From a virus (Duplodnaviria > Heunggongvirae > Uroviricota > Caudoviricetes): a stretch of 23,040 nt of DNA. The notes beneath the pieces were generated by a model. The model searched no databases and was not told where the DNA came from. It saw nothing but the letters and a program-made list of their open reading frames with translations. Below are positions 8,439-16,756 of the stretch, piece by piece. Position 1 is the stretch's first letter, and each line of letters starts with the position of its first letter. Location of the stretch: positions 1 to 23,040 of IMG/VR virus record IMGVR_UViG_2671181056_000005; one strand, written 5' to 3'. A program made the translations under genes and the position numbers.

Positions 8439-8717
8439 TTATTTTTGTTTGAGTATGTCGAGAACTTGGTCAAATTTGGCGTCCATCGCAACCACTTTCT
8501 TCTCTATACCGTGTAGTGTTTGTTCCATGCGATAAACTCTCTCGGCGATCTGGTCGTGGTTACTTTGCATTGTTTCAAACTTCTGATTAAACAATGCATC
8601 ATTGGACTCTAATTTCGACAATCTATTTTCTGTTGCTAATTGATTTCGGTGAAGTCTCCATAATCCACCGCAAATTAAGGCGATAACACCGATACCGCCA
8701 TATATAATTTCAGTCAT
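8439..8717 (-). CDS. Membrane-anchored coiled-coil protein, 92 aa
   Basis: N-terminal hydrophobic helix IIYGGIGVIALICGGLW followed by heptad-like charged region. Confidence 0.55.
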   Translation of the reverse strand: MTEIIYGGIGVIALICGGLWRLHRNQLATENRLSKLESNDALFNQKFETMQSNHDQIAERVYRMEQTLHGIEKKVVAMDAKFDQVLDILKQK

Positions 8718-8820: not shown

Positions 8821-11800
8821 TTAAGAAACAGTAATACCAGTAGTGGCTTTTTTAGTTACCATTACCGTTAAATCACTGATCCATGTGCTAGGCGTCCAGT
8901 TGTTGATTGCGCTTGATTGCACTTCAAAGGTCAAGGTCACAGCACCCTTACCCGCTGGCATATCAATAACACCTGAGTAAAGACCAGTATTACCGCCATA
9001 CGCCCTATTATACAACTCTGACCCATTCTTACGAACAATAAGGCGACAGGTGTCGTAAAACGTATTATTGTTCGACCCTTCACGCGCTCGCAATCCACCA
9101 AAACTAACAGCCGGAATAACGATTTGACGATCGAACTTGTGATCATCTTCAACGCGAACAGTGACCGTACCCTGTGGATAACCAGCATAACCATTATCAA
9201 CGTTAACATCACGATGCGGGAACTTACGTCCAATCACCTTAACGAAATCACCCTTAACCTGAGTAGCTTCAAGCATACCCTTAATAACACAGCTAGAGTT
9301 AATCGTGACGTTGTTCAGAGTACCAGAATCGGCAGTGATATTACCTTTAACGGTTGCATTCATGAACGTAGCGGACCCGTTCTTGTTGATATGCCATCCG
9401 GTCGATCCGTTCCAGTTGGAAGACTGGATATAGTTACCGATTTTAGCGTTATCAATTGCACCGTTTACGATCTTCGCGTTAGTGATTGCCCCGTCCTGAA
9501 TCTTCGCGCTGTTAATTGCAGCATTGCCGATTTTAGCCGTGGTAATCGCCGCATCATTAATCTGGGCTGTACCAATTGCAGCATTACGAATCATCGCATT
9601 ATCGAGATAAACCTTGTTACCTTCGATACCAAACGGGCATACTTCCGATCCGTTCTGTGGAGCTACAGCGATTTTATCAGCATTAAAGATGATTCTCGTC
9701 GGTTGTGCCGGATCGTTGGTTGCGCTCATGTGAATACCAGCCACGCGACCATCTGCATTAACCGCCAGATTATATTTGCTGTTAATGGTTCCCTTCAAAG
9801 CATCGATTTTTACATCTGCTTCCTGATTCACGCCAGCAATCTTGCCATCCATTTCTACCCGAACTTGATCAATCTTGCTTGCGCTTGCTGCCTCACTGGT
9901 AGCAATTGCTTGTTTCAGGGTAGTAGCAGATGCACTAACTTCTTTGGTGATATCGCCTTTCAGTTCAGCTTTAACCTGATCAATCTTAGTGGAGCTAGCT
10001 TGCTCGCTGGTAGCAATCAGACTCTTTAAGGTATTGGCTGAGGCTTGGACCGTCTGCCCTGTTTCGGTAGTGATTTGCTTATGCATTGCATCAATTTTAG
10101 CATCGGCATTAGCGCCAGCTTGAGCAATAGCATCCGCGATAGTTTCATCTAAGCGGTCTTGTAAACCAATCAGGTCTTCCAGTGCTTCTTTGTCCTGATC
10201 GTCCCAGCTAATGGTAGATTTCATTTGCATGAAATACGGTTCAGACCAAACAGCATCATCCATACCGAAAATATCGTAGTGAGCACCACGGATATAATAA
10301 TCACCGTCTGCCAAATCAAAGGAAGTATGGCTAACACTATTCGTGCTTACCGCCCTTGCATCGGAGAAAGTGTTATCGGTTGCATACTGGATGATTGACC
10401 CTGCATAATCATGTTCTACGTCATCTGCCCAGCTAACAAACACACTATTAAAGCCACCACGCGCACTAAAACCTTTCATTGGCTTATGTTGTGGGTTGAT
10501 AGCCACTAAACGCGCTGGGGCGCTCTCTGAGTTGTTATAGCCCTTAGCCGATACTTCTACCGTCAGTTGACGCGAAAGGCCGTTAAACTGGTTCATATCA
10601 AGCGTATAAGTCCATGATTCAGGATCGCGGGTACGGTACTGAATAGACTTACCAGCCTTGTTAGTCACCTTGATAATGTATGCTTCAAACAGGTCACTAA
10701 ACTTGTTAGTTTCACCGTTGATCTCAACATCTAAGCCTTGCTGGTTTTCCCATTCGATAATCAGATCATTACCTTCGAAAGTTCCTGGCGTGCTACCCTG
10801 ATTTTTGATTCGAATAACCGGAGTCGGCAATTCATAGGTAACAGTCGGATTCTGGTTAATCAGTTCTACCCAATCGGATCGAGCGATGATACCGAAAGCA
10901 CAAACTCGGTAATCATAAGAGCGATCTTTCGCCAGTGCATTGACACTGAAAATTTGCTGCGAAGTCTGTCCCAGCTTAATCCAGTTAGGCGATCCACTTA
11001 CACGGTAATCAATCTGGAAGCCGTAGCGGTTAAAATCTTCCGGTGCATCCCATGTCAAAGTAACGTTTTTACCGTAAATCGTCTCACCAGTTGCCTTAAT
11101 CCTGAAATTAGTAGGCTTCTGTACTGTCATTGAATCCGGTAAACCACTTGGTCGGTTATCTGGGTTAGCCGCATAGTTCAGGTCAGTATAAACCTGAGAA
11201 TTATATTCTGTGGCGGTGATAGTCATCATCCCAGCAATACCAGAATCAATCGAGCGATCAATTGCAGTAATACGCCATAAGGAATTATTCAGCTTCAATT
11301 CATCATAGGTTACGCTGATAACGTCCCAAACTTCGGCAGTGAATGCGTCAGTAGTCATAAAGCTGATAACCTGAGTGATACGAGATTTATTTCGCTCAAT
11401 GCTCGCGAGTTTATCAATCTGATCTTTAGACTTAACGAAACGATATTCTACATCCTTAGCAATAATTCGACCATCTGCGCGAACAGTAGCATCGTTTTCA
11501 GCATCAGCCGGATAACGTAGCATTTGCTCTGAATAGTCAATTGATGGTTCTTGATACATCGCGTTAATGGTATTGAAATAACCGTTAGTGCCACCTGTTT
11601 TCAGTGATACCTTACCCATCATGATATTGTCTTCATTGAAGGTATGCTTAACAATATCAGGAGCATCCAGTTTCAGCGTAATACGTCCAAAGGATTCGAA
11701 CATCACCCCGCCGAAAGTCTGCATAAGGCTAGTTAAGTTCTCTTTAAAGCTGGCGTTCGGATCACATGCACCGTTTGAATGTAGATCCATCTGGCGTACT

Positions 11801-12597
11801 TGCTTACGTACTTTCAGGAATGAATCAACGTTAATGTTTTCAATTGGTACGGATAAGCCATATTTTTCATTTGTTAGGTAGTGGAAAATCTGATCCACGC
11901 CGTTAGTGCTAGCCTCAATAGCATTGGTTTCAAGGTTACGGATTTTAAGGCCGCAAACGTCTACTGCTACCTGGCTATTTGGCTGGAGAATATCAACACC
12001 AGCAGCAAGAGATTTGTCATCACGACGTAACACAATACACATGGTCGCAATGCCGTTACCCTTGAAAGCGTCGGTCCAGTCTGAGCCTAAATGACGTTTT
12101 GCCAGCGACAAAGCGGTGTTAGGATTCTTGCCCGTGCGGAACTCGACTTCTAATACTTTACGATATTCTTCTTTAATGTTGCCCTTATCGAGAATACCAT
12201 CACGGATCGTCATGTTCTTACCAACAAGAACATTTTTATTATCAATAAAGAGTGCTTTGTAATGGTCGATTTCACCCTCGGCTACAGAGAAGATTTGCAC
12301 TAGCTTATTGTTTTCTTGCTTAGAAACTGCTTTGTAAACACAGTTTGTGCCAGTGCGGGTAGTACCGAAAACGACTGGTATCACCGCTTTCGGATCGTTT
12401 GATGTTCCTAGTGTCACCGCATTATCTGGGCTTTGTACTTTAGGTGTTTTTGGTGCGCCTACAGTGGAAGCGATCAAAGTCATTGCACCAGCAGCCATAC
12501 CGATAGCGACTGCGGTCATAACCGAAAATGTTGCGGCTGCCGCCATCCCCGCCGAAGCACCAGCAATAACCGCGCCTACCAATATTTCAAATCCCAT
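8821..12597 (-). CDS. Tail tip / host specificity protein, lambda gpJ-like, 1258 aa
   Basis: C-terminal ~150 aa resemble recalled lambda J C-terminus (TVTVRVEDDHKFDRQIVIP, VIDMPAGKGAVTLTF, MVTKKATTGITVS); FN3-like central region; N-terminal Ala/Gly-rich hydrophobic segment; start coupled TAATG to upstream gene. Confidence 0.85.
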   Translation of the reverse strand: MGFEILVGAVIAGASAGMAAAATFSVMTAVAIGMAAGAMTLIASTVGAPKTPKVQSPDNAVTLGTSNDPKAVIPVVFGTTRTGTNCVYKAVSKQENNKLVQIFSVAEGEIDHYKALFIDNKNVLVGKNMTIRDGILDKGNIKEEYRKVLEVEFRTGKNPNTALSLAKRHLGSDWTDAFKGNGIATMCIVLRRDDKSLAAGVDILQPNSQVAVDVCGLKIRNLETNAIEASTNGVDQIFHYLTNEKYGLSVPIENINVDSFLKVRKQVRQMDLHSNGACDPNASFKENLTSLMQTFGGVMFESFGRITLKLDAPDIVKHTFNEDNIMMGKVSLKTGGTNGYFNTINAMYQEPSIDYSEQMLRYPADAENDATVRADGRIIAKDVEYRFVKSKDQIDKLASIERNKSRITQVISFMTTDAFTAEVWDVISVTYDELKLNNSLWRITAIDRSIDSGIAGMMTITATEYNSQVYTDLNYAANPDNRPSGLPDSMTVQKPTNFRIKATGETIYGKNVTLTWDAPEDFNRYGFQIDYRVSGSPNWIKLGQTSQQIFSVNALAKDRSYDYRVCAFGIIARSDWVELINQNPTVTYELPTPVIRIKNQGSTPGTFEGNDLIIEWENQQGLDVEINGETNKFSDLFEAYIIKVTNKAGKSIQYRTRDPESWTYTLDMNQFNGLSRQLTVEVSAKGYNNSESAPARLVAINPQHKPMKGFSARGGFNSVFVSWADDVEHDYAGSIIQYATDNTFSDARAVSTNSVSHTSFDLADGDYYIRGAHYDIFGMDDAVWSEPYFMQMKSTISWDDQDKEALEDLIGLQDRLDETIADAIAQAGANADAKIDAMHKQITTETGQTVQASANTLKSLIATSEQASSTKIDQVKAELKGDITKEVSASATTLKQAIATSEAASASKIDQVRVEMDGKIAGVNQEADVKIDALKGTINSKYNLAVNADGRVAGIHMSATNDPAQPTRIIFNADKIAVAPQNGSEVCPFGIEGNKVYLDNAMIRNAAIGTAQINDAAITTAKIGNAAINSAKIQDGAITNAKIVNGAIDNAKIGNYIQSSNWNGSTGWHINKNGSATFMNATVKGNITADSGTLNNVTINSSCVIKGMLEATQVKGDFVKVIGRKFPHRDVNVDNGYAGYPQGTVTVRVEDDHKFDRQIVIPAVSFGGLRAREGSNNNTFYDTCRLIVRKNGSELYNRAYGGNTGLYSGVIDMPAGKGAVTLTFEVQSSAINNWTPSTWISDLTVMVTKKATTGITVS
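9436..9590 (-). repeat. Tandem 30-nt (10-aa) repeats inside the gpJ-like gene
   Basis: Period-30 nucleotide repeat encoding AQINDAAITT / AKIGNAAINS / AKIQDGAITN / AKIVNGAIDN. Confidence 0.6.
9832..10041 (-). repeat. Tandem ~105-nt (35-aa) duplication inside the gpJ-like gene
   Basis: Protein segments ASANTLKSLIATSEQASSTKIDQVKAELKGDITKE and ASATTLKQAIATSEAASASKIDQVRVEMDGKIAG. Confidence 0.5.
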
Positions 12598-13016
12598 TAT
12601 TCACCCCCGAATCTATAAACTTGTTCATAGTCAATGTCTGAAACAGGAATGGTCATCCAGATACCATCTTCTTCAACGAGGCCATAACCGGAATAATGAG
12701 GAACTACGGAATAATAATTACGGTTTCCTAATTTGTGGGCTGTGACCAGTAAGTCGCCGTCCTGTAAATCATCAGTGACTAATTTGAAATGTTTCTTAAT
12801 TGGTTGAAGGATATTTGAATACCCGCTTAATTCTTTGCAGATTTTCAAGCCTTCTTCTTTAGTTGAATATTTTTTATAAAGAGAATTATATAGGTCAGTA
12901 CCAGCGAGAATATCGATGATCTTACATGCAATGAGATTGCAATCATTCTCGCCTTGAACGAACTCCTGACCTATTAAAGAATTGATGTAATCGGTGATAA
13001 GCCTAGTTTTTAGCAT
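12597..13016 (-). CDS. Tail tip assembly protein, gpK-like (NlpC/P60-type Cys/His motifs), 140 aa
   Basis: ATG at 13016 has GGAGG 8 nt upstream; the track start at 13172 would overlap the upstream gene by 110 nt and is not used; motifs ENDCNLIA and VVPHYSGYG; stop overlaps the gpJ-like start. Confidence 0.5.
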   Translation of the reverse strand: MLKTRLITDYINSLIGQEFVQGENDCNLIACKIIDILAGTDLYNSLYKKYSTKEEGLKICKELSGYSNILQPIKKHFKLVTDDLQDGDLLVTAHKLGNRNYYSVVPHYSGYGLVEEDGIWMTIPVSDIDYEQVYRFGGE

Positions 13017-13062
13017 GTTGAATACCTCCATGCTGTTATTTACTAGGCTTAGGGAGAAGGGA

Positions 13063-13716
13063 TTATTTCTTCGATGAATGCCACTTGCTTTCGCTATTCC
13101 ACTTCCCGGCACGGGAGAAGAATAGATCGTTCTCGTTTCCAACATAGGATCGGTGGATACCATCGGAAGCATGACTACGAGCGTTTTTATCTAGAACTTC
13201 CCAGATACTATTAAGCTGAAATTCTGATTCGTTTTTACACTCTTCATCTTCATGTTCGATGTTAATACCGATGGAATCGACTACCCCACGGAAAACAGGG
13301 TAAGTAGTTTCAACCTTGCCCGTGTTGGGGTTAAGGAAAACCATCTCGATTTTCACATCAGATTTATCGAATTGCTTGTTACGAATCAGGGTAATGTATT
13401 CTTCGCGAACGTTAGAAACAGTTACGTTGATCCCGTTGTTGTTGATCTCCTTCTCTTCGGTATTCGATGAGATTTGAAGAAAGTCACCCGTTGCAAGATA
13501 CGTAAAACCGTTATAGTCCAAATCGAAATACCCATCAGTAAGCCGTAGAACGTCCCCTGACGCTGTTATCACTTCGATAATATGAAACATCGATCCAGTG
13601 GAGAAAAGTTGCGGTAGCGTCAATCTAGACACATTCTGACCTGTCTGGTCGTTGTATACCTCGATGAAGTCCAGATTAGTGCATAGTTTGCTGAATGATT
13701 CCTGAATAGTTGCCAT
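13063..13716 (-). CDS. Minor tail protein, gpL-like, 217 aa
   Basis: Position after the tape measure gene; N-terminus MATIQESFSKLCTNL and NVTVSNV resemble recalled lambda gpL; GGAG RBS; start coupled TAATG to upstream gene. Confidence 0.55.
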   Translation of the reverse strand: MATIQESFSKLCTNLDFIEVYNDQTGQNVSRLTLPQLFSTGSMFHIIEVITASGDVLRLTDGYFDLDYNGFTYLATGDFLQISSNTEEKEINNNGINVTVSNVREEYITLIRNKQFDKSDVKIEMVFLNPNTGKVETTYPVFRGVVDSIGINIEHEDEECKNESEFQLNSIWEVLDKNARSHASDGIHRSYVGNENDLFFSRAGKWNSESKWHSSKK

Positions 13717-14276
13717 TATACATTCTCCACTAATTCAAATTTCATCTTGCCGATCTGGGCGATCTTCCAATCGATGTTTTCAGTTTTGAGAACAAATTCA
13801 CCTTCTACGTTCTGATACTTGATCACCTCACCCGCCAGGACGTTCTGACGCAAGTTAGGGAAGAGTTTCATTTCGCCACCTGATTTCACGTCTTCGGTGA
13901 TCGTGTAGATTTTCTTGTGGTTCTCAAACTGGATGATAGTTCCTGCTTTCAGTGTTCCGGTGAAGTTGGAGATTCTCACCTTACGCCCACCGCGAGCAGT
14001 ACCAGCAGCAGCCGTTACCATCTGGCGTACATCACCTGTATATTTTGAAAAGTAAGACAGTGGCACACTAAAAGGACGACCAAAAAGGTGACGTGCTACA
14101 AATTCTTTTACTTCGTTAATATCCTGAGCCATGTAATTCGCGGTAAATTCTGCTTCGTAAAAATGGATGCCAGTAAAGCGACGCTGGAACTTACCGGAGA
14201 TAGATTGCGCCTTGAAGAAAGGCTGTTTTGATTTAAGAGTAAAATCTGTGATTTTAATATTCTTGGATTTGAACAT
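13716..14276 (-). CDS. Minor tail protein in the gpM / distal tail position, 187 aa
   Basis: First gene after the tape measure gene; start ATG 14276 or 14291, the latter lying inside the hairpin stem. Confidence 0.5.
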   Translation of the reverse strand: MFKSKNIKITDFTLKSKQPFFKAQSISGKFQRRFTGIHFYEAEFTANYMAQDINEVKEFVARHLFGRPFSVPLSYFSKYTGDVRQMVTAAAGTARGGRKVRISNFTGTLKAGTIIQFENHKKIYTITEDVKSGGEMKLFPNLRQNVLAGEVIKYQNVEGEFVLKTENIDWKIAQIGKMKFELVENV

Positions 14277-14282
14277 AGAAAA

Positions 14283-14324
14283 AGCCCCCATAGTTTTATG
14301 ATTATTTATGACTATGGGGCTTTT
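14283..14324 (-). terminator. Stem-loop with U-tract immediately after the tape measure gene
   Basis: Plus-strand AGCCCCCATAG (14283-14293) / CTATGGGGCT (14312-14321), 18-nt loop; on minus-strand RNA followed by UUUUUCU; contains the GGGGG RBS and one candidate start of the next gene. Confidence 0.45.
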
Positions 14325-14326
14325 AA

Positions 14327-16756
14327 TTACATCTTACGGCGCTGAGCGTCTTCTACCGCCTGAGCAACTAATTTAGCGTGACGTTTGATAGCATCCATGA
14401 CCATCTTGTCTGAGCTATTAACGTTGCCGTTAATGTTCAAAGGCGCATTAACTTCAATCGGCTGAGAGTTACCACCGCCTGATTTTTGAGCAGCAAGGAA
14501 GTCTTTCAAATCACCGTTAGTACGCTGATCAACTACTCGTTCCCCCTTATCAAGCAACCATGTACCCTCACGAGGGATGTTATCGATACCATCATGAGCC
14601 ATACCGCTAACATTAGTAGACTTGATGTTTGCGATGTTCCCCATGTTCTGAGAAACAGCCAATGCAGCAGCAGCGATTTTTTGACCTGTGGTTACGTTGG
14701 TCGGATCGTTCCATGCATCGGTAGCTGCCGTCCACATGTTCACCGTCGCTTGTCCAATGGAGAATGCCTTATGAGCATTGAAAGCCATCTGCATAGCTTT
14801 TGTGTTTTCCTGCCCGAAGAGAGTCATTGCAGCAGCAAAACCGCCGTACATATCATCGGCTATTGACTGACGAGCATCAGCGTATTTCTTCTCAATTGCA
14901 GCCATCCGTTTTTGATGGTTTTCATTGAGTTTTTCTAATGCTTCCATCCGTTTAGCCGGATCGGTGATCCCATCAATCTTGAGTTTATCGGTCTTATAAT
15001 CTTGTTCAGCATCCGATTTCTCTTTATCGATTGCATTAAATTTAGCAAACGGATTATTTGAGTCTTGATAATCATAACCACTAGTTAATTGATTGGTTTT
15101 ATAACCATCCATTCCCTGTAAAGAATTTTCAATCTGAGAATAGTTTTGCTCGGTATCGTTCACACGACGCATATATTCTTCGTAGGAGATAGCTTTACCA
15201 TCAAGTAACCGTTTATGGCTTTCTAGCTCGTTGTCCCTGATTTGTTGCAATTGTGTTAAAGCATTCAGAGCATCAATCGGATCAGCACCCAACATCATTT
15301 TATAAACGTTTTCAGTATTCTGATCGATTAGCGCCTGGCGTTTCGCGGCTGCGTCTTCCTGAGAGATTAAGCCCAGAGCTAACGCGTCGTTCACATCTTT
15401 TAAGCTGTTTTGCAACTGGCTATTTTGAGAAGTGATAGACGCTGCAACTTGCCCTTGCAATTTAACATCAAGTGCATTCAGTCGCTTGATTGCATCCTCG
15501 CGTGCTTTCTGTGCTTTTTCTGCGGCTTCCTTAGCCTTTTTAGCTGCCTCTTCCGCTTTCTTTTTGGCTTCTTCCTCGGCTTTCTTCTCGTTGCCAGATT
15601 TACCCAATGATTCTGGTCTTACTGGTTTATTTGGTAGAGTTAAATCAGTGTTAGGATCTGCCTTGCGTGTCAGATGTTCACCAGCATCTACGACAATCAG
15701 AGCACCATTTTTCTTATAAGACCCACCAAAACGTTTCTTAAATCCTTCTACATCAAAGCCAGCAGTACGAGGATCGACACCAGCACCACGGATCGCGGCC
15801 TTTTCCCAATCTGCTAGATTATTCCAACGCTTTTCTTTATTGTACTTGTCAATAATCTTTTGAGCGTCTTTATGGTTGGCGTTAAGAATACCGCCAGTTG
15901 CGGTCTTGCCTTCTTTATTCAGTCGATCTAATGCCCTGAATAGAGAACTCTTTTCCCAATCAATATTAAACCAGTCAAATAACCAGTTTAAACTATCAAC
16001 CAGCGGACCAGAAATGGTCATACCGACACCTTTCAGGTTATTTTCCAGCTTATTGATATTTTGAGAAAATTTATCATATTTTTTAGCGTTTTCTTCGGTG
16101 ACGTTAACAGATTGATTCTGAATAGCGATCATCGCCTCTTGAGCAGTATTATATTTCTCAAGCTGGCTGGTCATATGGCTTGAATCACTGGCTAAAGATT
16201 CCATCATGAACTTGATTTCAGCCATTGATTTTCCGGCTTTCTTCATGTCATAGAACACTTGGATCGCCGCTTTCATACCACCTTGCGGATCAGTCATGAA
16301 GTGAGCATAGTTTTCTAACTTAAGGCCAACCGATTCTAAGTCATCGGCAATACCGCCACCGTTAGCCCATGCATCACCCATTTTATCTAAGGTGTCTTTG
16401 TTGATATCACCAAATTTTTCAACTGTTAGGCCAGTGCCAGAAAATTCCTTTTCTAGTCTTTGAAGGGATTCAATCGAGAGTCCGGTCGCCTTAGATACTT
16501 CTGAATACTGTTTAACGTATTCCGCACCAGCTTTAGCGGCTGCAAAAACTGCGGTCGTAACTAAGCCGATACCACCAGCAGCCAAACCAGCAGAGCCAGC
16601 AATCCCACGAAGAGATCCAGTCAAACCAGACAAGCCACCACCAAAATCAATACCACTTGCCTTTTCAGACAAACTATCGAGAAGGTCGGCGGCTTCACTG
16701 GTACTTCTCCTTAGACCTTTATTATCCCCTTCTATTGTTACTATATGTTTTGTCAT
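14327..16756 (-). CDS. Tail tape measure protein, 809 aa
   Basis: Length, position after the chaperone pair, Gly-rich N-terminus, long coiled-coil with KKAEEEAKKKAEEAAKKAKEAAEKAQKA low-complexity repeat. Confidence 0.85.
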   Translation of the reverse strand: MTKHIVTIEGDNKGLRRSTSEAADLLDSLSEKASGIDFGGGLSGLTGSLRGIAGSAGLAAGGIGLVTTAVFAAAKAGAEYVKQYSEVSKATGLSIESLQRLEKEFSGTGLTVEKFGDINKDTLDKMGDAWANGGGIADDLESVGLKLENYAHFMTDPQGGMKAAIQVFYDMKKAGKSMAEIKFMMESLASDSSHMTSQLEKYNTAQEAMIAIQNQSVNVTEENAKKYDKFSQNINKLENNLKGVGMTISGPLVDSLNWLFDWFNIDWEKSSLFRALDRLNKEGKTATGGILNANHKDAQKIIDKYNKEKRWNNLADWEKAAIRGAGVDPRTAGFDVEGFKKRFGGSYKKNGALIVVDAGEHLTRKADPNTDLTLPNKPVRPESLGKSGNEKKAEEEAKKKAEEAAKKAKEAAEKAQKAREDAIKRLNALDVKLQGQVAASITSQNSQLQNSLKDVNDALALGLISQEDAAAKRQALIDQNTENVYKMMLGADPIDALNALTQLQQIRDNELESHKRLLDGKAISYEEYMRRVNDTEQNYSQIENSLQGMDGYKTNQLTSGYDYQDSNNPFAKFNAIDKEKSDAEQDYKTDKLKIDGITDPAKRMEALEKLNENHQKRMAAIEKKYADARQSIADDMYGGFAAAMTLFGQENTKAMQMAFNAHKAFSIGQATVNMWTAATDAWNDPTNVTTGQKIAAAALAVSQNMGNIANIKSTNVSGMAHDGIDNIPREGTWLLDKGERVVDQRTNGDLKDFLAAQKSGGGNSQPIEVNAPLNINGNVNSSDKMVMDAIKRHAKLVAQAVEDAQRRKM

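Follow-up and report, generated by a model that had tools for sequence, protein, structure and literature searches.

In phage lambda, three copies of gpI lie within the cone of the tail tip, where an N-terminal domain that is unresolved in the structure is followed by a pair of helices of hydrophobic character, H1 and H2, predicted to be transmembrane, and by a plug (residues 159–175) that closes the lumen, with strands that thread between the hub domains of gpJ (PMC11101478). Once LamB is bound, the gpI plug becomes loose and H1/H2 vanish in the direction of the membrane (PMC11101478). gpI has also been described as both a plug and a tripod for the C-terminal end of gpH, and gpL plus gpI plus gpJ's N-terminal part were together equated with pb3 of phage T5 (PMC10721106). 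In the gene transfer agent RcGTA, residues 1–46 of the g15 “megatron” form an iris or penetration domain that shuts the channel and for which entry into the outer membrane has been proposed (PMC7296036). Fusions of the two lambda-type proteins, TAPI–TAPJ, were described in prophages by Iyer, Burroughs and Aravind in 2006, with versions of K in such operons that have only the NlpC/P60 domain, and the same authors predicted that the JAB domain of gpK cuts a ubiquitin-like domain off TAPI (PMC1779556). The gene considered here lies at positions 8821–12597, on the minus strand, of a 23,040-nucleotide stretch of viral DNA (IMG/VR record IMGVR_UViG_2671181056_000005, positions 1 to 23,040; “the window” hereafter), and its product unites a gpI-like and a gpJ-like part in one polypeptide.

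With a probability of roughly 0.8, the product of this gene is a trimer that serves a non-lambdoid E. coli prophage of the siphovirus type as its central tail fibre and distal hub protein, with a plug module resembling the C-terminal half of gpI built into it. The single chain would carry, in this order, the gpI-like module, the hub domains HDII–HDIV, three FN3-like domains, a helical segment, the straight fibre, and a receptor-binding domain (RBD) of the lambda J type.

The N-terminal gpI-like module

By the list of open reading frames (ORFs) and the translation, the gene has 1258 codons, for a chain of ~135 kDa, with its stop codon at 8821–8823, and an identical start and stop are annotated by RefSeq in a 97%-identical prophage copy in E. 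coli strain GN4741; the RefSeq label of this coding sequence, given in 54 E. coli genomes, is only “phage tail tip domain-containing protein”. The N-terminus reads MGFEILVGAVIAGASAGMAAAATF...APKTPKVQSPDN...VIPVVFGTTRTG, as in a first-pass annotation of the window made by a model from the sequence alone, which had likened the first ~90 residues to the C-terminal part of lambda gpI. The similarity to the C-terminus of gpI exceeds what chance would give. Residues 1–47 (12457–12597, minus strand, as for all parts of the gene) are rich in alanine, glycine and valine and, by the profile alignment to gpI 118–155, are the putative counterpart of helices H1/H2, predicted to insert into the membrane; they hold the one strongly hydrophobic stretch of the protein, a Kyte–Doolittle mean of at least 1.6 over 19 residues being reached solely at positions 10–39. 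Residues 48–70 (12388–12456), the APKTPKVQSPDN... segment, would correspond to the lumen plug of gpI (159–175) by BLASTP and hhalign, with APK--TPKVQSPDN aligned to APKARTPRIQTTDN in the BLASTP comparison. Residues 71–92 (12322–12387) contain a beta-strand, AVIPVVFGTTRTGTNCVYKAV, that is predicted by an AlphaFold2 (AF2) model and that the profile equates with NVLPVLYGEMRVGSRVVSQ of gpI and with 262-KFIPVVYG of T5 pb3.

The pairwise BLASTP alignment of residues 48–92 with lambda gpI 156–208 has 36% identity and an E-value of 1e-5 (as a single comparison). An exhaustive phmmer search with residues 1–130 over 1.84 billion representative proteins gave 32 matches at E ≤ 0.001, about 20 of which are J-like proteins of 650–2300 residues that match at their own N-terminus. 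Two spurious repeat proteins among the matches (P0014 and P0022) were discarded, leaving the module in ~29 distant protein clusters. A profile (A1) was built from 27 homologous N-termini taken from this search, across which residue G78 is invariant. When compared with all PDB sequences, A1 matched T5 pb3 262–314 (E 4e-8) and lambda gpI 118–221 (E 1.3e-6), the latter colinearly over the hydrophobic region, the plug and the strand; immediately upstream of the stretch matched in pb3 is the T5 plug, a hairpin with its tip at 230–238, which refolds to become anchored in the outer membrane (PMC10038345). An hhalign comparison of A1 with a gpI-family alignment gave a probability of 95.9% (E 5e-9; residues 46–109 on gpI 155–223), a result that owes most to the diversity on the query side, the gpI-family alignment being shallow (at least 70% identity). 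The PHROG family of gpI (PHROG 32) was matched at its positions 100–200 of 203 (E 0.009), and the match to the J family (PHROG 31) falls in an N-terminal extension of that profile. In a local hmmsearch, gpI occupied positions 10–104 of A1 and the N-terminus of gpJ (residues 23–54) was placed, weakly (E 0.047), on positions 97–124; the boundary between the lambda I and J genes thus maps to about residues 92–98 of the window protein.

These alignments show residues 1–92 to be a homologue of the lambda gpI C-terminal half, and the features by which this half (TAPI-C) is recognized, i.e., C-terminal hydrophobic helices, plug and beta-strands, can all be discerned in them. The Pfam model Lambda_tail_I (PF06805), which covers residues 14–97 of lambda gpI, had no match to the window protein even at E ≤ 10; by sequence, the ubiquitin-like N-terminal domain of gpI is absent and only TAPI-C, for which Pfam has no model, is present. 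The AF2 model of residues 1–500 has a mean predicted local distance difference test score (pLDDT) of 78.8, with residues 60–486 mostly at 80–95. In it the gpI-like strand spans residues 79–91 at a pLDDT of ~89–90, and a second strand follows at 98–107, beyond a loop of six residues.

Hub domains and fibre shaft

Residues 93–486 (11140–12321) are assigned to hub domains of the baseplate-hub or J type (HDII, an insertion, HDIII and HDIV) by family profile, AF2 and Foldseek. A profile of 16 full-length family members (A2), searched against PDB, matched the T1 tip protein 9l9p_S (E 1.8e-62), T5 pb3 (E 3.8e-57, colinear over pb3 262–875), the F2 pyocin fibre (E 1.3e-47), lambda gpJ (E 1.2e-28, gpJ 266–481) and lambda gpI (E 2.4e-7, gpI 115–221), gpI lying on A2 positions 7–105 and gpJ 266–481 following on positions 219–423. 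When the AF2 model was compared with PDB by Foldseek, T5 pb3 was the first match (E 1.4e-26, TMq 0.66–0.68), followed by JBD30, Chi, lambda gpJ (2.6e-16), RcGTA 6tba_8A (1.2e-15) and T1. The Pfam family Phage-tail_3 scores 19.7 bits on the window protein, under its cut-off of 23 bits, and is passed by 12 of the 16 family members at E ≤ 0.001. Profile and predicted fold agree in placing HDII–HDIV of a J-type protein in this region.

Beyond the hub, three FN3-like domains are proposed within residues ~495–792 (10222–11115), at ~495–590, 596–700 and 703–792, from profile matches and a weak Pfam fn3 hit over residues 508–570 (E 0.0025); A2 positions 482–722 match titin and other FN3 domains, and the domain boundaries were placed by eye from W and Y-x-x-R-V motifs. 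Residues ~795–945 (9763–10215) form a presumably alpha-helical segment, judging from its heptad-like sequence, whose position corresponds to that of the AHS of lambda gpJ (PMC11101478) and which holds a 37-residue duplication. It leads into residues 931–1055 (9433–9807), in which a Phage_Tail_Tip domain (PF09327, residues 931–1028; E 5.6e-18, 65.5 bits against a cut-off of 22), the straight-fibre domain expected of a lambda-type J, runs into five 10-residue straight-fibre repeats. Outside the last ~300 residues, BLASTP against gpJ found no detectable identity.

Both of these repeats had been noted in the first-pass annotation, as blocks of 30-nucleotide units and as a 105-nucleotide duplication that could promote recombinational variation. 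The blocks do exist and are weaker than described: a repeat search found four to five 30-nucleotide units at 9433–9601 that are only 63–73% identical, and one 68-nucleotide pair (9839–9906 / 9950–10017) with 72% identity and a spacing of 111 rather than 105 nucleotides. Tandem Repeats Finder, at a minimum score of 30, reported nothing in either block, its single row in the ORF being an unrelated 22-nucleotide array at 8903–8924. At the protein level, the first block corresponds to five 10-residue units with the pattern I-x-N/D-A/G-A-I-x-x-A-K (residues ~1003–1055), which stand opposite a gap when BLASTP aligns the protein with lambda J, and the second to the 37-residue helical duplication, at residues 861–883 / 898–920 (nucleotides 9950–10017 / 9839–9906). 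Four alleles were compared, i.e., those of the window, of GN4741, of PI7 and of an O6:H16 strain, and the repeat copy number is equal in all four; the protein of Escherichia phage DCP80 carries the same five 10-residue units at an overall identity of ~40%. Because the copy number is constant and the five units are shared with DCP80, the repeats are therefore taken to be old, degenerate structural repeats of the protein, not recent DNA repeats or a source of current variation, and the suggested role in recombination finds no support.

The receptor-binding domain

The protein ends in an Ig_GpJ_C domain (PF12421; residues 1124–1258, 8824–9228), matched over positions 3–135 of 135 with E 9.3e-34 and 116.9 bits (cut-off 26.2), as is characteristic of lambda-type J proteins. 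In PDB, the best match of this domain is gpJ A8 (gpJ 713; 9wca/9wcb) with E 3.8e-54, lambda gpJ following with E 1.1e-34, so that the placement of the C-terminus in the lambda J family by the first-pass annotation was correct. The A8 sequence comes from the C-terminal end of a gpJ occurring naturally in E. coli and was grafted onto lambda J at position 964; it delivers DNA to lamB-deleted cells via OmpC (PMC11338833). Over the last ~170 residues, the window protein is 52% identical to A8 and 42% identical to lambda, and A8 and lambda are 46.5% identical to each other. Residues 1067–1123 (9229–9399; …GTLNNVTINSSCVIKGMLEATQVKGDFVK) make up a conserved linker before the RBD that aligns with lambda J 946–1003 and with A8 gpJ; it is the region of the chimera junction, lambda J position 964 (PMC11338833), and the alleles diverge beyond it.

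In the four alleles, identity of at least 96% falls to 62–76% just past the end of this linker, ...ATQVKGDFVK, and the allelic divergence is confined to the RBD. The PI7 and O6:H16 alleles are 10 residues shorter, owing to indels in the RBD at alignment columns 1134–1140, 1179–1180 and 1206; loss of one 30-nucleotide repeat unit was considered for the 30-nucleotide shortening in PI7 and rejected, as the indels sit in RBD loops. From these alignments, the RBD appears to be a swappable cassette that begins right after the conserved linker and varies between copies of the prophage. The DNA of the RBD allele in the window was found at ≥95% identity in 17 genomes. A recent exchange of the RBD with lambdoid prophages was also considered and rejected, lambdoid gpJ genes sharing only short patches of 60–80% identity with it. 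Since alleles of the same prophage gene differ by indels in RBD loops, receptor specificity probably varies even within this family. Among the 16 family members that were scanned, Ig_GpJ_C is confined to the window protein, and DCP80 and the metagenomic relatives have different C-terminal ends; the window protein is thus a mosaic of a non-lambdoid scaffold and a lambda-type tip.

The tail module and its relatives

A tail module lying entirely on the minus strand ends with the fibre ORF, its largest gene. The ATG of this ORF (12597) overlaps the stop of a K-like gene (12597–13016, minus strand), which encodes a 139-residue DUF6950 protein (Pfam E 3e-12) in the position of lambda K and RcGTA g14. 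Upstream of this are a hub attachment protein of 217 residues (13063–13716, minus), a likely counterpart of gpL and RcGTA g13 that carries HDI and matches Phage_phiJL001_Gp84_N (E 8e-6, 26.5 bits with a cut-off of 26; DUF2163 protein in RefSeq); a distal tail protein (Dit) of 191 residues (13716–14291, minus; PHROG 1302 “distal tail protein”, E 1.6e-16, with a weak Pfam DTP-pb9_B-dom match); and a tape measure protein (TMP) of 809 residues (14327–16756, minus). The last is assigned from position, size and its coiled-coil-rich sequence, TMP_3 being matched in Pfam by the syntenic genes of related loci. For the DUF6950 gene, the program-made ORF (12597–13172, minus) has 191 codons and overlaps the hub gene by 110 nucleotides; RefSeq and homologues support the 139-residue form starting at 13016 as the true product. 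Neither the DUF6950 protein nor the 217-residue hub protein had a match among PDB sequences.

In the Pfam scan, the DUF6950 protein had no Prok-JAB match, while lambda K in the same scan has NLPC_P60 and Prok-JAB; lambda K also has a marginal DUF6950 match at its Cys region (E 0.067), and the DUF6950 protein shows, by sequence, an N-D-C-N motif where NlpC/P60 enzymes carry the catalytic Cys. Searches of the window by tblastn with lambda gpI, gpK and gpL recovered nothing except the J C-terminus, and no ubiquitin-like or JAB sequence was detectable in the window by Pfam or tblastn. Directly downstream of the fibre gene, a 92-residue protein (8439–8717, minus) has one N-terminal transmembrane segment and a coiled coil, with a weak DUF7201 match, and it may be a lysis or superinfection-exclusion component; it is followed by more small genes and by a Peptidase_M15 endolysin at 6816–7169.

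Of 5,426 complete E. coli genomes, 55 (~1%) carry the DNA of the fibre gene on the chromosome, at 80–97% identity, and megablast against 50,697 phage and 72,556 plasmid records gave no near match. The closest protein of an isolated phage is that of DCP80 (38% identity), which was also the only phage detected by tblastn with the first 100 residues, and a word-indexed protein search with residues 1–300 retrieved just six close relatives or fragments. In relatives with usable flanks, the order is TMP, a Dit of ~190 residues, a hub protein of ~200–225 residues, a DUF6950 or NLPC_P60 protein of 132–145 residues, and the long fibre. The full order is seen in DCP80 (locus L005) and in the metagenomic loci L008, L009, L010 and L011, and L006 shows the DUF6950–fibre pair only. 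Locus L009 is GTA-like, with DUF2460, Gp84_N and NLPC_P60; P0024, a relative found beside these genes in a GTA context, shares the N-terminal module (E 7e-5).

Two of these records have peculiarities of their own. In L006 (6001–11092), the fibre gene is split by an IS3-family element (rve/HTH_Tnp_1) into N-terminal and C-terminal parts of 430 and 864 residues. The DCP80 record (PQ671644.1, 141 kb; L005 is 11763–29269) is labelled Straboviridae/Tevenvirinae/Gaprivervirus, yet contains a siphovirus-type module with a TMP of 804 residues, Dit, hub, a 138-residue DUF6950-like protein and a 1252-residue fibre with the gpI-like N-terminus, two genes of the module being unannotated (5143–5703 and 6499–6915); the taxonomy or the assembly of this record looks questionable.

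The first-pass annotation had proposed an I–J fusion or a missing separate I gene. The two parts are indeed joined, and no separate I gene is present between the K-like gene and the fibre ORF; what is joined to the J-like protein, however, is TAPI-C only, and “fusion” probably names the wrong direction. Since T5 pb3 and dozens of distant relatives keep the stretch contiguous, sequence comparison suggests that the contiguous form is probably ancestral, and that the I gene of lambda arose by a fission and gained a ubiquitin-like domain. Neither Lambda_tail_I nor JAB is on record in L005, L006 and L008–L011. That lineages with TAPI-C in the fibre consistently go without the ubiquitin-like domain known from gpI and also without the JAB domain known from gpK, as in 7/7 loci, is put forward tentatively, as a rather doubtful generalization.

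Proposed mechanism and alternative readings

By homology with gpI/gpJ and pb3, the three N-terminal modules of a trimer would sit inside the tip cone of the virion, where they would close off the tube and keep hold of the tape measure protein by its C-terminus, the beta-strand of each module forming part of the hub fold. With plug and fibre in one covalent chain, their 3:3 stoichiometry would be automatic. The RBD would bind a trimeric outer-membrane porin, a signal would run upwards through the fibre, hub domains and FN3 strings would swing out, and the plug would be released; the hydrophobic helices could then drop onto or into the outer membrane, after which the tape measure protein and the DNA would exit.

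Several points weigh against this picture. In the AF2 monomer model the pLDDT is below 50 for residues 1–56, a low value that is expected for a monomer model; the hydrophobic part adds little to the statistics, BLASTP and hhalign covering only residues ~46–109; and a composition rich in alanine and glycine can inflate HMM scores (the bias correction of HMMER was on). The A1 profile gave no match to the RcGTA megatron sequence in PDB, and tblastn of gpI against the window missed the alignment found by BLASTP. Furthermore, the side-fibre gene next door is broken by the insertion sequence IS5, and the prophage may not make infectious particles.

The composition of residues 1–47, together with the lack of a curated Pfam family for this part of gpI and the two spurious repeat proteins returned by the exhaustive search, could be taken to mean that the gpI similarity is a compositional artefact, the first ~50 residues being no more than a low-complexity leader, membrane anchor or signal peptide in front of an otherwise ordinary J-like protein. 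This is very improbable, as the significant alignments rest on the non-hydrophobic pattern APK..P.IQ..D...PV.YG..R.G, which is colinear in gpI, T5 pb3 and the 27 homologues and includes the invariant G78, and as the order of hydrophobic segment, plug, strand and hub equals that of lambda gpI followed by gpJ. That the ORF is a pseudogene or an annotation artefact, in which a small I-like gene and J happened to be joined in frame in one genome, is scarcely conceivable: the IS5 in the side-fibre gene of this prophage does speak of some decay, but the ORF of 1248–1258 residues is uninterrupted in 54 complete E. coli genomes and is also intact in phage DCP80, and the same N-terminus occurs in distant metagenomic relatives. 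The protein might instead be a precursor that is cut where the gpI-like module meets the J-like body, for instance by the adjacent DUF6950/NlpC-P60-like protein, leaving, as in lambda, a separate gpI-like peptide in the virion. The processing of TAPI by gpK that Iyer et al. predicted (PMC1779556), the papain-fold-related gene directly upstream in every locus examined, and the position of the lambda gene boundary all fit such a cut; it is nevertheless quite unlikely, given that the AF2 strands at 79–91 and 98–107 (pLDDT ~90) leave the loop between them as the sole possible cut site, that the equivalent stretch of T5 pb3 is uncut in solved structures, and that the ubiquitin-like domain and the JAB peptidase, the pair behind the cleavage proposal, are both missing.

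The built-in plug module remains the preferred reading, and the receptor can be considered apart from it. The first-pass annotation had predicted a LamB-type receptor, and in fact the RBD belongs to the same Pfam family as that of lambda J, with the 42% identity given above, and the lambda RBD puts four loops into the LamB lumen (PMC11101478). LamB is nonetheless an unlikely receptor: the nearest solved RBD is that of A8, which takes the OmpC route in lamB-deleted cells, and other alleles of the same prophage gene carry indels in the RBD loops. As A8 and lambda are 46.5% identical and yet use different porins, overall identity or family membership appears to have no power to predict the porin, and LamB is therefore not predictable from the family. 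The best guess from sequence is that OmpC is slightly better placed than LamB, with LamB or OmpF possible.

Other features of the prophage

A complete IS5 occupies 21845–23040, up to the end of the window, with the inverted repeats GGAAGGTGCGAACAAG and CTTATTCGCACCTTCC and a transposase ORF at 21913–22893. Comparison with the GN4741 copy shows the side tail-fibre gene to be broken by it ~391 nucleotides past the start, and the first ~23 codons of the remaining ORF (18702–21914, minus) are derived from the IS, the fibre being left without its N-terminal ~130 residues. The prophage copies in strains GN4741 and ETEC4090 are free of this IS5. In the side fibre, a T4 Gp34 trimerisation domain (E 9e-25) is combined with a Peptidase_S74 chaperone domain. 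A 168-residue protein (17491–17997, minus), encoded between the genes for tail tube and chaperone, has the N-terminal domain of the T-even Gp38 adhesin (E 4e-15), and a T-even-like set of side fibre and adhesin is thus found within a siphovirus-type tail module.

The region 3152–6820 is missing from the GN4741 prophage, which is otherwise syntenic, and it codes for a CapR-domain protein (3065–4249, minus), an ORF of 189 residues and a UvsW-like helicase (4965–6464, plus); it may be a defence island or variable cargo. At 1297–2991 the window encodes a large serine recombinase (Resolvase, Recombinase and Zn_ribbon_recom). In GN4741 (locus L001, 12732–16454), the prophage lies next to a serine recombinase and its end abuts a truncated ycdX beside the csg curli operon, which suggests ycdX as the integration site.

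Significance and comparison with known systems

The architecture was already known in outline from the TAPI–TAPJ fusions of 2006, the megatron of 2020 and the equation of gpL, gpI and gpJ with pb3 of 2023, and the current understanding of how siphovirus tips function is left unchanged. What the window protein would add is a bridge at the sequence level between three solved tips, lambda gpI and gpJ, T5 pb3 and the RcGTA megatron, in which the separate I gene of lambda appears as the exception. Such a bridge helps annotation, where Pfam lacks a TAPI-C model and the RefSeq name is uninformative. If lineages with TAPI-C in the fibre truly lack both the ubiquitin-like and the JAB domain, this E. 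coli prophage would provide, in a host that is easy to work with, a naturally minimal system in which to probe the roles of the gpI N-terminal domain and of gpK. The RBD alleles may define new porin specificities for lambda-based delivery vectors, and at least two of them, behind a conserved linker, are candidates for retargeting lambda-type vectors.

With RcGTA (6TBA; PMC7296036), the window shares the order of Dit, DUF2163/Gp84_N hub, a papain-fold-type protein of ~140 residues and a large J-like protein, the layout of the RcGTA genes g12–g15. The element of the megatron that closes the channel and serves in penetration is borne on the J-like protein itself, and the hydrophobic N-terminus and plug homologue of the window protein may correspond to it, by a link that is indirect, via P0024; the hub part matches by fold with the Foldseek value given above. 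Unlike the megatron, which ends in a fibre-binding domain, the window protein would be a central fibre with a lambda-type RBD, and the element is an enterobacterial prophage, not a GTA. T5 pb3 (7ZHJ/7ZQP) is the best structural and profile match for residues ~70–616 (pb3 262–875), the PVVYG...AEGEID stretch comes directly after the plug hairpin, and two or more FN3 domains lie beyond the hub. On the other hand, pb3 includes HDI, whereas the window has it on the separate 217-residue protein; the plug of T5 takes the form of a beta-hairpin that ends in a short LFGL tip, whereas two long hydrophobic helices are predicted here; and fibre and receptor-binding protein are separate proteins in T5, pb4 and pb5. 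The TAPI–TAPJ fusions likewise join an I-type module to a J protein in prophages, but were described with the ubiquitin-like domain, in contrast to the TAPI-C-only form of the window. The A8 gpJ RBD (9WCA/9WCB; Brödel et al. 2024, PMC11338833) has the NNWTP and SNN(N/Q) loop features in common with the window RBD, although the two differ at 48% of positions and the scaffold of A8 is a lambdoid J.

Lambda itself differs in having two polypeptides, in the order L-K-I-J and with J starting at the hub domain, where the window has one; the PF06805 ubiquitin-like N-terminal domain is missing from the window, as is JAB from the K-like neighbour; the straight fibre of the window protein has an extra block of 48 residues made of the 10-residue repeats; and its RBD is nearer to an allele that uses OmpC. 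The correspondence otherwise runs the whole length of the two lambda proteins, with residues 1–92 matching the C-terminal half of gpI, residues 93–486 the hub domains of gpJ, and the distal part following gpJ in its order of FN3 domains, helical segment, straight fibre and Ig_GpJ_C RBD.

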